A stretch of DNA of 64,000 bases from Limnothrix sp. BL-A-16. GTDB taxonomy: Bacteria > Cyanobacteriota > Cyanobacteriia > CACIAM-69d. The stretch is from positions 32,001 through 96,000 of the forward strand of contig CP166615.1 of NCBI GenBank assembly GCA_041937175.2, given 5' to 3'. The notes beneath the pieces were generated by a model. The model worked only from the letters and a program-made list of their open reading frames with translations, was not told where the DNA came from and did not search any database. A program made the position numbers and the translations under genes. Shown piece by piece: positions 7,966-19,782 of the stretch. The first letter of the stretch is position 1; the number at the start of each line of letters is the position of its first letter.

Positions 7966-8652
7966 ATGCTGCCATCCTTCCTAGAATCATTGCCCAACGC
8001 TGACGAACTCCCCGATTCTTGCGATATTCCCGTGGATAACGAAGAACAAAATTTTATTCCCAACGTCCTCTTGTTCCTGCTGGAATACATTTGGAAGCAC
8101 CGGGAAGACTGGTTTTTTGCGGTTGATATGGGGGTTTACCACGCCACGGGGCCTCATCCGAAAGTGCCGGTGATTCCCGATGGCTTTTTGAGCCTGGGGG
8201 TCGATCGCCGCAAGAATGGTAAACCGCGCCGCAGCTACATCACCTGGACGGAAAACAACATTCCACCGATTTTGGCCCTGGAGGTGGTTTCCTACACACC
8301 GGGTGAAGAGTATGACGAAAAAATGGCAATTTACGCCCGACTGGGGGTGTTGTATTACGTGATCTACAATCCCGAATTTTGGCGGCGGGATGGTCACTTG
8401 CCCTTAGAGGTTTACAAGCTAGTGGAGGGAACCTATCAACTTCAGGTGGGTGAACCCTGCTGGATGCCGGAAATTGGCTTGGGAATCGGGCGCGATCGCC
8501 TCATCGATGACCCATTCGATCGCGAAGTGCTCACCTGGTACGACGCGCAGGGACAACGCTATCGTAGCGAGGCCGAGGTAGAGCGCGATCGAGCCGATCG
8601 CTTGGCCGCGCGGTTGCGGGAGTTGGGGATTGATCCAGAGGCGATCGAGTAG
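7966..8652 (+). CDS. Uma2 family (DUF820) putative restriction endonuclease, copy 1
   Basis: DNEEQ..., VIPDGFLSLGV, LALEVVS...EYDEKMAIYARLGVLYYVIYNP and the C-terminal RLRELGIDPE tail. Confidence 0.9.
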   Translation: MLPSFLESLPNADELPDSCDIPVDNEEQNFIPNVLLFLLEYIWKHREDWFFAVDMGVYHATGPHPKVPVIPDGFLSLGVDRRKNGKPRRSYITWTENNIPPILALEVVSYTPGEEYDEKMAIYARLGVLYYVIYNPEFWRRDGHLPLEVYKLVEGTYQLQVGEPCWMPEIGLGIGRDRLIDDPFDREVLTWYDAQGQRYRSEAEVERDRADRLAARLRELGIDPEAIE

Positions 8653-8693: not shown

Positions 8694-9299
8694 TTAAAGC
8701 GTTGAGCGGCTGGCGCGATCGCATTGCTGCAAGAGGTGGTGCAACGCGCCCAATAATTCAGCCGGGTTGCGATTGGAATATAGGCCGGTTTCATAGACCT
8801 GGCCCGACCGATCGAGCCGATAAAACCGCCACCCATCGCCGTTGGTGACAATTCCCAACACCTCAATGGGGCGATCGCCGTTGCAATCTTGGCAGGCTTT
8901 CATTTCCACTAAGCATTGGGCTAATCCTTGCTCAAAGTCATCTTTTTTGGCTTCGACAATACACAGGAAGGGAGCCGCCACATAGTCTCGGCGCTCTGTA
9001 ATTAAGTAATCGACATTGCCGGTGACTTGTGCGGTTTCTAGCTTGACTCCTTTCCAGATTTTGAGATGTGCTAGGTCGGTGATTGCTTCTTCGCAAAAGG
9101 CATCAATCACCAGTTCTTTCGATTTTTCGCAGTAGCGCAGGTCAAAGTGCGCTTGGAGGCGGCGCAGGCGTTCCTGAAAGAAGGGGCTAGGCGATCGGGG
9201 TTGGCTTTCCAGTTCCCACAATTTCAGTTCGGTTAGGTTGAGATATTGATAAGCTTCTGCCAGGGCAAAGCTGGAGAAATTTTTGCGTTTTTTGATCAT
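8694..9299 (-). CDS. PD-(D/E)XK nuclease-like protein (HsdR-N-like fold)
   Basis: VDYL...CIVEAKK...GLAQC...GIVTNG..WRF motif pattern; ATG at 9299. Confidence 0.7.
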   Translation of the reverse strand: MIKKRKNFSSFALAEAYQYLNLTELKLWELESQPRSPSPFFQERLRRLQAHFDLRYCEKSKELVIDAFCEEAITDLAHLKIWKGVKLETAQVTGNVDYLITERRDYVAAPFLCIVEAKKDDFEQGLAQCLVEMKACQDCNGDRPIEVLGIVTNGDGWRFYRLDRSGQVYETGLYSNRNPAELLGALHHLLQQCDRASRSTL

Positions 9300-9348
9300 T
9301 GACCAAAATCTCTGAATTCCAGAAGTCCTTACCATTATCAATCATCCC

Positions 9349-9526
9349 GTAGGGTGCATGGGAGCAATCTCGAATTGTTATGAAATGTGCGGCTTCGTCT
9401 CCCATGCACCGTGGGTTGGGGCAACACAACCGATCGAAAATTATCGGTTTGTTGCGGTGGATTGCGGTGCATGGGAGATGAATGGAAATTGTCATTGCCT
9501 CCCATGCGTTCTCCCATGCGCCCTAC
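9349..9526. repeat. GTAG-headed REP-doublet/REPIN-like element
   Basis: Ends GTAGGGTGCATGGGAG and CTCCCATGCGCCCTAC are inverted; an internal inverted pair CTCCCATGCACC / GGTGCATGGGAG is also present. Confidence 0.7.
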
Positions 9527-9612
9527 CCGTGAAAAAAAATTGACCGCGCAGAGCGTGGGGTAAAGCAGAAGGGAAAAGAGGGAAAGAAGCGTAAAAGGGA
9601 AAAGAGTCCTGG

Positions 9613-11448
9613 CTAGGGCAAAGCGACAACCCGAAACCCAACGTGGCCGTAGATAACGTCGCGATTGACAGCCCACCACCCATAGCGATGCGCAGAGCGG
9701 CAGCCCAACGGAAAGTAGCTCCAAGAACCACCACGCAGGAGTTTGATTTGTTTATTGTCAAGATCAGTCAAATTCTGGAAAGCTCCATTGTCTATTTGTC
9801 CGCTTTCTCGAAATTGACTTATAAATAGTTGTTCATGTTTTAAATTGTCAAACCAAGGATGACCATTAACCGGTGCATTTTGATAGGTATTATGCCAATC
9901 ATCCAGACACCATTCCCACACATTCCCGTGCATCTCCTGCAAGCCAAAATCATTGGACGGGAAGCGACCAACCGGCGTGGTTCCAACACCGAAGGCTTGG
10001 CCATAGTGCGCTAAATCGTGGCTCAGGTTATTACCAAAATGAAACCGAGTCGTTGTGCCAGCGCGGCAAGCATATTCCCATTCGGCCTCGCTGGGCAGTC
10101 GGTAGCGTCGTCCCGTTCGCTGCCAGAGCCGCGCACAGAACTCCATCGCTTCAAACCAGTTCACCTGCTCCACCGGTCGATCATCGCCCTTGAAATAAGC
10201 AGGGTCAGGCTCAAGATCTCGGCAAACCTTGGGCCAGGCTGCCACGGCCCGCCACTGAGCCTGCGTGACAGGAAAGCGCCCCATATCAAACGCTGGCATA
10301 TCCACCCAATGTTGCGGCCGTTCATCTGGACTGGAACTCTCCTCCGACTCGGGCGATCCCATCAGAAACCGCCCTGCCGGAATCGGCAACAGTTCCAACA
10401 GTACCCCGCCGCCCAAATCCTCCACGATCGTCTGGGGCTTTGCTGGCTCCCTGTTCACCGGCTCCCCATGCTCAACAACTGGCTCAACCCGCTTCGGACT
10501 AGCAGGCACAACAACCGGCGACGGCGAGGCGTTGTGTTGTTTGCTCCGAAGTCGGAATAACGCCTCAAAACACTGGCGGCCCAACTTCCCCGCCGAGGCA
10601 ATATTGATCCGAATCCAGAGCTGTTCCGCGAGCTGCAAATCGCCCTCAAGTTCCGCCTGAAAAGCATCCGCCCGTAACTCTGCCCAGTCTCCCGGCTCCG
10701 ATTGGTGCGGAAACAAAATCAGGTGCGACTTGCGGATCGGCTCCACCACCGTATGCGGCGTTTGCCGCCGATCGCGCCCCACCAACTGCGGCACGCGATC
10801 GACCAAATAGCGATCCAAACTCGCCACCGTCGCATAGCCCCGCTGACTGCGAAACGCCTCCAACAGCGCATGGGTAAACGCCCCATGCTGCAATTCTTCT
10901 AGCTCATAGGACGACTCATAGCGACTGCAAGAAGCAATACTCACCACCCCCTTGAGCCGGCCCTGGTTCGCCGTGTCTTCGCCAACGCCCGCCACCCCCT
11001 TGGCCCCAGTCGATCGCCCCTCATCCCGACAGGCATCCAACAACAGCACCACATTGTCCGCACCGCACCGCCGCAACTGCTCCACCACGTAGGACACGCG
11101 GATCCCCGTTTCGGCCACGCTCATCGGCGAAGCTTCCATGGGCATCAGATAATCGCGCCCTTCCGCGTCCAACATTCCGTGGCCACTGAAGAAAAACCAA
11201 AAGTTGTCGCCCGCCGTCAGCTTGCGGTTGGCGGCAATTTGGCCCAGCAGTTCAATCACATTGGCCCGGGTCGGTTGCCGCAACCGATCGCCCTGCTGAG
11301 AGTCAAACAACCGCACAAATTCAAAGCCGATCGACTGCCAAAACGCCGCCATTTCCTGGGCATCGCGCTCGGCATATTTCAACGGCGGTAAGCGATCGTA
11401 TTGGTTCACCCCGATCGCGATCGCCCAGTTCCGCCCTTCAGCGCTCAT
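9613..11448 (-). CDS. Caspase-like peptidase C14 fused to an FGE-sulfatase (SUMF1-type C-type lectin fold) domain
   Basis: N-terminal AIAIGVNQY, FSGHG (catalytic His) and LDACR (catalytic Cys); C-terminal FLMGS, YRLPSEAEWEYACRAG, MHGNVWEWC, RGGSW and GFRVV. Confidence 0.93.
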   Translation of the reverse strand: MSAEGRNWAIAIGVNQYDRLPPLKYAERDAQEMAAFWQSIGFEFVRLFDSQQGDRLRQPTRANVIELLGQIAANRKLTAGDNFWFFFSGHGMLDAEGRDYLMPMEASPMSVAETGIRVSYVVEQLRRCGADNVVLLLDACRDEGRSTGAKGVAGVGEDTANQGRLKGVVSIASCSRYESSYELEELQHGAFTHALLEAFRSQRGYATVASLDRYLVDRVPQLVGRDRRQTPHTVVEPIRKSHLILFPHQSEPGDWAELRADAFQAELEGDLQLAEQLWIRINIASAGKLGRQCFEALFRLRSKQHNASPSPVVVPASPKRVEPVVEHGEPVNREPAKPQTIVEDLGGGVLLELLPIPAGRFLMGSPESEESSSPDERPQHWVDMPAFDMGRFPVTQAQWRAVAAWPKVCRDLEPDPAYFKGDDRPVEQVNWFEAMEFCARLWQRTGRRYRLPSEAEWEYACRAGTTTRFHFGNNLSHDLAHYGQAFGVGTTPVGRFPSNDFGLQEMHGNVWEWCLDDWHNTYQNAPVNGHPWFDNLKHEQLFISQFRESGQIDNGAFQNLTDLDNKQIKLLRGGSWSYFPLGCRSAHRYGWWAVNRDVIYGHVGFRVVALP

Positions 11449-11491: not shown

Positions 11492-11956
11492 TTAGCCCTT
11501 CAGTTTCAATTCGATTGCGATCGTGCCCGTCATGCCGCCTTTCGCCCCCACCGCTTGGATGCCGATCGACCCCTCCGCCGAAATCCCCAACTGTAGCTGC
11601 ACCTTTTCGATCTCCAGGGTTTGCAAATCCGCCTGGGCGATCGCCCGTTGCATCAGGGTTTCAAACAACTTGATCTGCTGGGCCAACTGCCGCGCCGACA
11701 CATCCACCACCTTGGTGCTCACCCGATTGATGGTTTGGTCGATCTGGTCACGTATTTGACGATTTTGGGTTTCCTGCTGTTCATCGGGAAAATAGCTCAA
11801 ATTCCCCATAAAGTCCGAGATCACTCCTTTACGACCGGGTTCAGGATCAGCCGTTGTGAGATTCGCCGCCGGGGCGATCGGCTCATCCACCAACAGCACC
11901 AGCGACACAATGTCTTCAGACGAAGAGGATAAATTTTCAGGGCGATCGGGGGTCAT
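11492..11956 (-). CDS. Pepco/Trypco-like (peptidase co-occurring) small protein
   Basis: C-terminal helix plus beta-hairpin LEIEKVQLQLGISAEGSIGIQAVGAKGGMTGTIAIEL typical of Pepco/Trypco domains; 43 bp upstream of the caspase gene on the same strand; ATG at 11956. Confidence 0.7.
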   Translation of the reverse strand: MTPDRPENLSSSSEDIVSLVLLVDEPIAPAANLTTADPEPGRKGVISDFMGNLSYFPDEQQETQNRQIRDQIDQTINRVSTKVVDVSARQLAQQIKLFETLMQRAIAQADLQTLEIEKVQLQLGISAEGSIGIQAVGAKGGMTGTIAIELKLKG

Positions 11957-12073: not shown

Positions 12074-12787
12074 GTGGATCCACTGTCCCCCGTTGACGAG
12101 TTAATCGATGCCGACGATACCCTTGTCGATAACGAAGACCAATTTTTTATTCCCACTGTGTTGTTGATGTCGTTGAACTACCTCTGGCGACATCGGGAAG
12201 ATTGGTTTTTCTCGGGCAATATGGGCATTTATCACATCACGGGTTCTAATCCGTGCATTCCGGTGGTTCCAAATGCCTTCTTGAGCATTGGGGTTGATCG
12301 CCGCAAAGATAGAAAATCACGCCGAAACTACGTTATTTGGACGGAAAACAACATTCCACCGATTTTCACCCTAGAGCTGGTGTCCCACAAGCCGGGCGGG
12401 GAATATGACAGCAAAATGGCGATTTATGCCCGTTTAGGCGTGTTGTATTACGTGATCTATAACCCCGAATTTTGGCAGCGGGACGGTCATGATCCCTTTG
12501 AGGTTTACAAGTTGGTTGATGGGGCTTATCAACGGCAAAGTGGTGAACCCTGTTGGATGCCGGAAATTAGCTTAGGGATTGGGCGCGATCGCCTCATCGA
12601 TGACCCGTTCGATCGAGAAATTCTCACTTGGTATGACGCGCGGGGCCAACGCTATCGCAGCGAGGCGGAGGTGGAGCGCGATCGAGCGGCCGCCGAACGC
12701 CAACGGGCCGCAACCGAGCGCCAACGAGCCGATCGCCTGGCGGCCCGGCTGCGGGAGTTGGGGATTGATCCTGAGGCGATCGGGTAG
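12074..12787 (+). CDS. Uma2 family endonuclease, copy 2 (paralog of 7966-8652; altered start)
   Basis: Near-identical C-terminal half to copy 1; in-frame TGA at 12065 just upstream of the GTG at 12074. Confidence 0.8.
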   Translation: MDPLSPVDELIDADDTLVDNEDQFFIPTVLLMSLNYLWRHREDWFFSGNMGIYHITGSNPCIPVVPNAFLSIGVDRRKDRKSRRNYVIWTENNIPPIFTLELVSHKPGGEYDSKMAIYARLGVLYYVIYNPEFWQRDGHDPFEVYKLVDGAYQRQSGEPCWMPEISLGIGRDRLIDDPFDREILTWYDARGQRYRSEAEVERDRAAAERQRAATERQRADRLAARLRELGIDPEAIG

Positions 12788-17979: not shown

Positions 17980-18513
17980 ATGCTCGAACCCTTCATTGGA
18001 CAGCTCGAACTATATCCCTACAATTTCGCGCCCGAAGGCTGGTTGCCCTGCGACGGGCGATCGCTCCCCATCCGAGAGAATGAAGCCCTCTTCAGCTTGC
18101 TTGGCACCACTTACGGCGGAGATGGATATACGGTCTTCAACTTGCCAGATCTCCGAGGCCGTGTCCCGATCGGCCAGGGATCAGCACCCGGCCAAGGTCG
18201 AACCTATGACATCGGGAGAACTGGTGGACAAGCCCAAGTTACCCTGACGGTTGCCAACCTGCCCGCCCACACCCACACCCTCGCCACCGCCGACAGTTCC
18301 ACCACCAACAGCCCCAGCGGCAATTTTCTCGGCCCCCTCACCACCGCCGATGGAACACCCGCCAACGCCTATGACTCTACCCCCGAAGCCAGCCTAGCCC
18401 CGGGGGTGATTGCCAATACGGGCGGTGGCCAGCCTCACGAAAACATGCCCCCTTACCTCGCCCTGCAATGGTGCATTGCGACAATCGGCGAATATCCCAC
18501 CCGCGATTGGTAA
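17980..18513 (+). CDS. Phage tail-collar domain protein (MdpB-like), copy 1
   Basis: FIGQL...FAPEGWLPCDG...LFSLLGTTYGGDG...FNLPDLRGR...LPAHTH...HENMPPYL..WCIA. Confidence 0.92.
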   Translation: MLEPFIGQLELYPYNFAPEGWLPCDGRSLPIRENEALFSLLGTTYGGDGYTVFNLPDLRGRVPIGQGSAPGQGRTYDIGRTGGQAQVTLTVANLPAHTHTLATADSSTTNSPSGNFLGPLTTADGTPANAYDSTPEASLAPGVIANTGGGQPHENMPPYLALQWCIATIGEYPTRDW

Positions 18514-18565
18514 TGGCGCGCTTTTGTTGAATCCCGTTTCGTTGTCCTCTTCTTTCTCTTCAGCC

Positions 18566-19093
18566 ATGGATCCATTTATTGGACAGATTCAAGCCTTTGC
18601 CTTTCCCTTTGCGCCTCGGGGGTGGGCCCTGTGCCAGGGACAAGTATTGTCTATTAGCCAGAGTCCAGCGCTCTTCGCCCTGCTCGGAACGACCTACGGT
18701 GGTGATGGCAGAACGACCTTTGGCCTGCCGGATTTGCGCGGTCGCACCAATATTTCGCAAGGGCTGCCCTCGAATGGGTCACCGTACCTCATGGGGCAAT
18801 TGGGCGGTGCGCCGGAAGTCAGTCTGCTGACGACTCAAATTCCTGCCCACACCCACGAAGTCAAAGTTTCCTCAGATGCCGCTGCTGTTTTTCCGCAAGA
18901 TCGCTATTTCGGAACGCTCACGGCCAATGCCGGTGATGCGCCCAAGGGCTACGGCACGACGGCGGGCAAAGCCACTATTTCTCCAACAGCAATCTCAGCC
19001 ACCGGGAACAGCACGCCCTGTGACAATATGCCGCCCTTTTTGGTGGTGAATTGGTGCATTGCCACAACGGGAATTTTCCCGAGTCGGTGGTAG
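18566..19093 (+). CDS. Phage tail-collar domain protein (MdpB-like), copy 2
   Basis: MDPFIGQI...FAPRGWALCQG...LFALLGTTYGGDG..TFGLPDLRGR...NMPPFL; ATG at 18566. Confidence 0.92.
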   Translation: MDPFIGQIQAFAFPFAPRGWALCQGQVLSISQSPALFALLGTTYGGDGRTTFGLPDLRGRTNISQGLPSNGSPYLMGQLGGAPEVSLLTTQIPAHTHEVKVSSDAAAVFPQDRYFGTLTANAGDAPKGYGTTAGKATISPTAISATGNSTPCDNMPPFLVVNWCIATTGIFPSRW

Positions 19094-19263
19094 ATCGCAA
19101 GGCGGTTTGCATTCATTGTGTGGGCGATCGACCGGGTTCTTGTCCTCAGTTCTTGCCCTAAATGATTGGGTCATCATGGGGCTGATTGTGATCGACCAAC
19201 CTGGTTGGTTAAGGCTCTTTTTCAAGATCGATTACTGACCAAAACCGATTACCGAGGTGCTTT

Positions 19264-19782
19264 ATGATCGATGCCTATATTGGACAGGTTAAATCCTTTG
19301 GCTATAACTTTGCGCCAACAGACTGGATGCTTTGCGATGGACGGACATTGCAAATTGCTCAGTACACAGCGCTTTTTAGTCTGTTAAGTACGACGTTTGG
19401 GGGCGACGGCATAAACACGTTTAATTTGCCGGATTTGCGGGGACGCATCGCGATCGGCCCTGGCCAAGGCCCCGGATTGCCCAACTATCCACAGGGGCAG
19501 CGAGGGGGGAGCGAACAGGTGACGCTCACCGTTGCTCATTTACCCACCCACAATCACGCGATTAAAGCGTCTTCGGATTCGTCGGTTTCTACTCCGGCGA
19601 ATAACTTCATTGGCCCGGTGGACGATCGCTTCAAGGGTTTTGATCTCACGCCGGAAACTTCCTTGAATGCGGCTGCCCTATCGAAGGTGGGTGGTGGCCA
19701 ACCCCACAACAATATGCCGCCCTATTTGGTCACCAATTGGTGTATTTGCGTCCAAGGCGTATATCCGAGTCGCCCCTACTAG
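19264..19782 (+). CDS. Phage tail-collar domain protein (MdpB-like), copy 3
   Basis: YIGQV...FAPTDWMLCDG...LFSLLSTTFGGDG..TFNLPDLRGR...HNNMPPYL. Confidence 0.92.
   Translation: MIDAYIGQVKSFGYNFAPTDWMLCDGRTLQIAQYTALFSLLSTTFGGDGINTFNLPDLRGRIAIGPGQGPGLPNYPQGQRGGSEQVTLTVAHLPTHNHAIKASSDSSVSTPANNFIGPVDDRFKGFDLTPETSLNAAALSKVGGGQPHNNMPPYLVTNWCICVQGVYPSRPY

Follow-up and report, generated by a model that had tools for sequence, protein, structure and literature searches.

Limnothrix sp. BL-A-16 carries, in the 64,000-nucleotide stretch of contig CP166615.1 analysed here (the window), a caspase-like gene fused to a C-type lectin (CLec) whose 3' end resembles the variable region (VR) of a diversity-generating retroelement (DGR). 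The initial annotation, made from the letters alone, had read this end as the hypervariable head of a remote DGR target. The locus raises the question of where its VR came from, whether it is still being rewritten, and what the lectin controls.

A caspase–lectin fusion with a DGR-type end

The features of the locus are collected in Table 1. In a sequence search, the caspase–CLec protein matched the DGR target TvpA (PDB 2y3c, E 7e-15), which together with the PF03781 match places the VR at the 3' end of a gene of CLec fold. The His90/Cys140 dyad of the Peptidase_C14 domain was intact, and the loop past the catalytic Cys contained Gly-x-Arg/Lys motifs. The closest named homologs of this protein and of the Pepco protein encoded upstream were from Limnothrix. 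AlphaFold2 models were of low confidence (pLDDT 41 for caspase–CLec, 49 for the Pepco monomer), and structure was not used as a basis for what follows.

The codon pattern, the GSW, CRSA, R and GFRV anchors, the stop codon and the downstream motif, pyrimidine tract and hairpin all lay where the initial annotation had placed them. Between GGSW and GFR, 21 of the 27 VR codons ended in C or T, compared with 261 of 576 codons in the remaining gene. The motif after the stop codon, CCAGGACTCTT (9602–9612), was IMH-like, and a role as IMH would follow from the account in the available text on the Bordetella phage BPP-1 DGR (PMC5758913).

Table 1. Features of the caspase–CLec locus (positions within the window)
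Feature	Position	Strand	Basis or remark
Caspase-like protease + FGE-type C-type lectin fusion, 611 aa	9613..11448	-	ORF; Pfam PF00656 E 3e-23, PF03781 E 1e-46
Peptidase_C14 domain, aa 6-234	10747..11433	-	Pfam; predicted protease
FGE-sulfatase/CLec domain, aa 353-608	9625..10392	-	Pfam PF03781
DGR variable region (VR), aa 577-603, 15-codon loop form, orphaned	9640..9720	-	Comparison with L076 template; differs in every ortholog lineage
Constant 3' end + IMH-type motif	9602..9639	-	VR form: G where L076 template has C
Pyrimidine tract	9560..9601	-	Conserved in sister loci, 5-locus alignment
GC-rich hairpin	9544..9558	-	Differs by one substitution from each of the 4 sister loci
T-run past hairpin	9531..9539	-	Homology to intact L076 cassette stops about here
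GTAG-type REP-like repeat element	9349..9526		Sits where Avd starts in intact cassette; 9 further genome matches
Pepco gene, 154 aa, likely protease-activated effector	11492..11956	-	PF24393, 47 bits vs cut-off 27
Candidate Pepco cut site near Lys43	11825-11836	-	Motif analysis; putative site

An intact cassette in a relative

We found a complete and apparently intact cassette at L076:5548-9770, in a relative whose flanking housekeeping genes were 77–84% identical to those of this genome, kinship being judged from these flanking genes only. Its gene order was recA, Pepco, caspase–CLec, IMH/hairpin, Avd, RT and template repeat (TR). Avd scored 125.6 bits against a cut-off of 80, and RVT_1, Pepco, caspase and FGE domains were also detected. 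As in a complete DGR, the VR of L076 differed from its own TR at 14 of 26 adenines and at none of 79 non-A positions; the template could encode about 8e14 protein variants.

Compared with the same TR, to which the window was homologous over 9602–9741, the window VR differed at 17 of 26 adenines but also at 9 of 79 non-A positions and had three extra codons. The L076 template, three codons shorter and with these nine non-A differences, is thus not the exact cognate of the window VR. It was nevertheless the closest of six TRs, the other five giving 19–31 non-A differences. A Fisher test for the adenine bias returned p=2e-7, an inflated value given that non-cognate VR/TR pairs reached 1e-8. We rejected this p value as proof on its own because such pairs also score low, and relied on the non-A count as the discriminating measure, backed by the lineage-specific codon core and the non-coding block in common with L076. 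By the non-A count, the sister VRs L072, G001 and G003 differed from the L076 TR at 0, 5 and 12 of 79 positions, respectively. L072 and G003 were of the Pepco–caspase type, G001 had a SAV_2336-type N-terminus, and no Avd lay downstream of L072. The L072 contig, 3109 bp long and holding Pepco and caspase–CLec genes, is either recently orphaned or genuinely a remote target. VR indels and non-A changes are known from DGRs (PMC5758913, in its available text). Judged by sequence comparison, L076 preserves intact the template lineage from which the VR descended, and the matching template in a complete cassette bears out the DGR origin that the initial annotation had proposed for the segment, its IMH and its hairpin.

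The non-coding block showed the same ancestry, with one substitution in the hairpin. One position of the IMH-type motif distinguishes VR from TR in L076, and there the window carried the VR form, not the TR form. The annotated hairpin CCGCGC-AGA-GCGTGG was present, but it was imperfect and weaker than in the sisters: read on the plus strand, the stem contained a G-T wobble, which on the coding strand becomes an A-C mismatch, with energies of -2.5/-4.9 kcal/mol, compared with -7.8 to -8.2 in L076, L072, G001 and G003, all four of which had a perfect 6-bp stem. The window thus retains the arrangement of a DGR target, an IMH distinct from IMH* with a GC-rich inverted repeat downstream, the hairpin being weakened by one substitution.

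In G001, the same REP-like element followed the hairpin beside a REP-associated tyrosine transposase (NF047646 over cut-off), and in G003 a GTAG repeat followed it. A GTAG-type repeat at the Avd start position, common to the window, G001 and G003, may have caused the loss of the retroelement. CLec/VR ends also appear to be swapped between effectors: at L011:1498-3846 (G001), a gene with a SAV_2336-type N-terminus carried a VR of this lineage together with its 3' non-coding block, followed by REP repeats and the transposase.

No retroelement detected in the genome

The assembly comprised two contigs with no N and was 100% complete by markers. An RVT_1 profile search of the genome returned nothing; tblastn with three cyanobacterial DGR RTs gave a best E of 0.27, and the L076 RT yielded no candidate (best E 0.5). 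For Avd, the best genome profile score was 14.9 bits against a cut-off of 80, and tblastn gave no match at E<=1. The blastn search of the whole genome for a template, which the initial annotation had suggested, produced only A-rich chance matches, and an adenine-tolerant 45-mer scan of both contigs revealed no template among the matches listed, which were on C1 only. None of the RT, Avd and TR of an active DGR was therefore found in this genome, and the designation as a remote target could not be upheld. The gene is a DGR target by descent, most probably an orphan and not a remote target of an active DGR.

Two paralogs at C1:228-230 kb were rejected as template or co-targets: they were coding, differed from the L076 TR at 30 of 79 non-A positions and had neither an IMH-type end nor a hairpin. 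The fourth FGE match in the genome belonged to another protein, whose end did not look VR-like on inspection. Among the eight family genomes (this one included), a DGR RT was found only in G007, which was 72% complete; none was found in either genome of the same genus, or in G001 or G003. The G007 element (L021 and L085), a second DGR of this family, belongs to another template lineage and has two or more targets. As a source of the window VR it was ruled out by 31 of 81 non-A differences to its template.

VR alleles of the orthologs

We compared seven close ortholog clusters with the window protein, 15 sequences in all with nine distinct VRs. Identity to the window was 93–97% in the caspase domain and 80–88% in the CLec core (51% in P0014, which has another CLec), whereas the VR matched at 8–12 of 23–27 residues (33–50%). 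Position-restricted hypervariability, which the initial annotation had proposed to look for across strains, was thus present among the orthologs, at the protein level only. Absence of a template and RT, or evenly spread ortholog differences, had been named there as evidence against its reading. The first held in part: this genome yielded neither TR nor RT, and of eight family genomes one had an RT (G007, with a template of another lineage). The ortholog variation was concentrated in the VR.

Within clusters, the VR was identical in eight of nine pairs, two of which differed elsewhere, at 3 and 10 residues, and P0009/P0133 was the exception with different VRs; the pairs lack independence, and in some of them a single organism may have been sequenced twice. 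Most pairs of near-identical alleles share one VR, and "hypervariable" is not supported as a description of the segment in this organism. In nine of ten ortholog VRs, 0–3 of 23 codons were unreachable by A-only change of the L076 TR (five in P0014). Distant caspase–CLec controls, of which 99 of 112 could be parsed, had 3–9 unreachable codons, with five or more in 90 of the 99. On this protein-level evidence, the ortholog VR alleles are many, A-mutagenised and each stable within its own lineage, and the VR looks to have been diversified earlier and to be frozen now.

The 15-codon loop also occurred in P0010 and P0012 with different residues, so a longer template variant probably existed. We did not find this cognate long template with one exact 3'-end pattern, which can miss it, in metagenome, genome or viral contigs (yielding 8, 4 and 0 loci, respectively), nor among the 30 loci returned by BLAST of 401 class genomes. 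Lake metagenome contigs from four of 17 runs were compatible with a frozen VR but weakly informative: one spanned 9509–9886 without a gap, its 10 differences being close to the background rate (10/606, 12/646, 8/426), and two joints skipped the VR, although at 80% likeness they may derive from other organisms.

At the syntenic site of G002 (L097:1270-1600), only a remnant was present, with Pepco internally deleted and the caspase cut after residue 34. Two small genes follow it that we take to be XisH/XisI-like.

The Pepco partner

Upstream of the caspase–CLec gene lies a Pepco gene, which the initial annotation had not mentioned. Its homologs were 78–98% identical, and Pepco was found in 60 of the 151 genomes searched. 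Both genes were intact here and in several orthologs, and a Pepco gene directly upstream of a protease–sensor fusion with intact catalytic residues is the layout of Pepco–protease modules. In the available text of the preprint that describes these modules (Evans et al. 2025, PMC12642450), Pepco is a protease-activated, pore-forming effector, and FGE sensors and cysteine proteases are named among its partners. Pepco is likely the substrate of the caspase–CLec protease.

The tested Pepco is paired with Avs4, which is trypsin-like, and a tail of 2 kDa is removed from its C-terminus after Ile97 (PMC12642450, available text), whereas the window Pepco has no such tail: it ends about four residues past the last strand, leaving nothing removable after a conserved Ile of the serine-protease type. 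Across the 16 parsed Pepcos that are linked to caspases, the tail measured 4–11 residues. The window Pepco had a strand at its N-terminus as well as an acidic linker and a Gly-x-Lys site, and an alignment of 34 Pepcos (the best 30 loci by score and four of the window group) had Arg or Lys in one column after the N-terminal strand and acidic linker in all 34, mostly as Gly-x-Arg/Lys. A similar motif lay just after the catalytic Cys of the caspases that partner these cyanobacterial Pepcos (L104–L133). Cognate Pepco/caspase pairs were more alike than shuffled ones (12.6 vs 9.8, p=0.011; 16 of 33 pairs parsed, kin not independent, alignment gappy there). These motifs suggest that caspase-linked Pepcos may be cut at the N-terminal Gly-x-Arg/Lys site; EACC1, armed by removal of an N-terminal fragment, offers a precedent (PMC12642450, available text).

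Neighbouring and related loci

The module lies between two Uma2-family nuclease genes in direct orientation (window 7966-8652 and 12074-12787), which share 72% identity over 801 bp. The minus-strand ORF at 8694-9341 (215 aa) had no Pfam or NCBIfam match at E<=0.1, and its homologs in G002 and G003 lay at other sites. Farther along the plus strand (17980-19782) are three tandem small genes that we take to resemble phage tail-collar (microcystin-dependent-like) proteins, followed by what is presumably an MbtH-like ORF. At L001:7891-15583 of the same genome (C1:227,890-235,582), a tandem pair of CLec-only genes, nearly identical at their 3' ends, lies with a Trypco1 gene and a caspase-nSTAND5-TPR gene containing many near-identical TPR repeats. 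That region is likely a second defence locus.

Discussion

The locus is best explained as a two-gene protease–effector module, Pepco followed by caspase–CLec, and the tip of its CLec is most probably a DGR variable region left without its retroelement. The cassette would have been present in, or encountered by, an ancestor, and the CLec tip would have been rewritten from a template variant three codons longer. Avd, RT and TR would then have been lost, or the gene would have arrived without them, the allele would have frozen, and the hairpin substitution would have been taken up after freezing. In operation, a foreign ligand, most likely a phage product, would bind the CLec tip and activate the Arg/Lys-specific caspase, which would cut Pepco; cut Pepco would form membrane pores, and the infected filament cell would die. 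By analogy with the tested Pepco, we lean towards such a ligand-triggered cell-suicide defence. The function is drawn by analogy only, because the partner of the tested Pepco is a serine protease, and the cut falls in a C-terminal tail without counterpart here.

More tentatively, and with less confidence than in the suicide switch itself, these cyanobacteria may maintain a population-level library of frozen, DGR-written sensor alleles set on a Pepco switch. The Avd–RT–TR generator would persist only in rare lineages and the others would hold one fixed VR each; VR-bearing CLec ends would be swapped between different N-terminal effectors, and the N-terminal Gly-x-Arg/Lys cut in Pepco would mimic a self-cleavage loop of the caspase.

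Several other readings compete with this. A real though lesser possibility accepts the same orphan VR but assigns the module to stress signalling or regulated proteolysis instead of invader-triggered death, or regards it as decaying. The remnant in G002 suits decay, and the literature found held no phage test of a caspase–CLec/Pepco pair; yet neither gene is damaged here or in several orthologs, and patchy presence is also typical of defence genes. Regulatory roles are argued in the available text of PMC7517822, whereas the one Pepco tested proved to be a death effector (PMC12642450, available text).

That an active DGR elsewhere in the strain, on a missed replicon or hidden by misassembly, still rewrites the VR is very unlikely. 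The IMH-type end is intact and the hairpin still partly foldable, the sister target L072 matches the L076 TR at every non-A position with no Avd downstream, RT-like sequences of cyanobacterial DGRs occur on plasmids (eight records matched), and remote targets are common in cyanobacteria (PMC7517822, available text). All of this would suit a remote target, but no RT, Avd or TR was found in the two contigs of the complete assembly and no RT in either same-genus genome, the hairpin is substituted, and the VR is fixed in all but one of the close pairs. Least probable of all is a pattern mimicked by ordinary diversifying selection acting on the binding loop of a lectin: adenine positions are enriched in non-cognate VR/TR pairs too, because template adenines mark variable residues, and other CLec paralogs of the genome vary in the same loop, but the non-coding elements here (IMH, tract and hairpin) recur at a proven DGR target, a lineage-specific core of three AGG-derived codons, then GCT, is shared with the L076 template, third codon positions are retained where first and second both changed, and the C1:228-230 kb paralogs, at 30/79, are without the downstream elements.

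Parts of the orphan-target reading have precedents. Orthocaspase–CLec targets, remote targets and removal of the machinery after selection are already known from the available text of Vallota-Eastman et al. (2020, PMC7517822), which suggests for Nostoc all3226 that diversification components may be removed after a variant is selected. Those cyanobacterial systems share with the window the C-terminal FGE-type CLec, the 3' VR, the orthocaspase fusion and dispersed targets, but their genomes retain DGRs, whereas no RT, Avd or TR was found genome-wide here. The modules of Evans et al. likewise place Pepco directly upstream of a sensor-fused protease, and the available text states a DGR link for EACC1, not for Pepco. 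This preprint was the only relevant paper on Pepco that we found, and its figures or supplements may show Pepco–DGR neighbourhoods or cysteine-type cut sites.

The DGR-diversified conflict sensors of multicellular bacteria (Doré et al. 2024, PMC10907252; Kaur et al. 2021, PMC8195603), in their available texts, combine CLec/FGS sensors with caspase or trypsin effectors and Trypco adapters, and MITE-like elements near decayed DGR parts recall the window. Unlike them, the window yielded neither a MoxR/vWA nor a STAND component in the scanned flanking genes, a part of its ORFs; the word Pepco is absent from the main texts of both papers. The BPP-1 DGR (Wu et al. 2018, PMC5758913, available text) has, as here, a VR, an IMH unlike IMH* and a GC-rich inverted repeat downstream, but is a complete, active, phage-borne cassette that diversifies a tail fibre. 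We found no paper joining Limnothrix and diversity-generating retroelements in a search whose coverage left out most subscription journals.

The locus is a well-controlled case of a DGR target outliving its retroelement, with a living template lineage for comparison. RT-anchored surveys miss remote targets (PMC8144416, available text), and they also miss VR-like ends in RT-free genomes. As an orphan target can sit in such a genome, VR-like ends there should not be taken as ongoing hypermutation. If N-terminal cleavage of Pepco proves true, the mechanism known for Pepco would also cover its cysteine-protease branch, a common one in cyanobacteria. The locus also joins a sensor written by a DGR to an effector, Pepco, whose killing mechanism has been tested. 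This link means that a two-gene construct and the nine natural VR alleles could be used to test the immune role proposed for cyanobacterial DGR targets.
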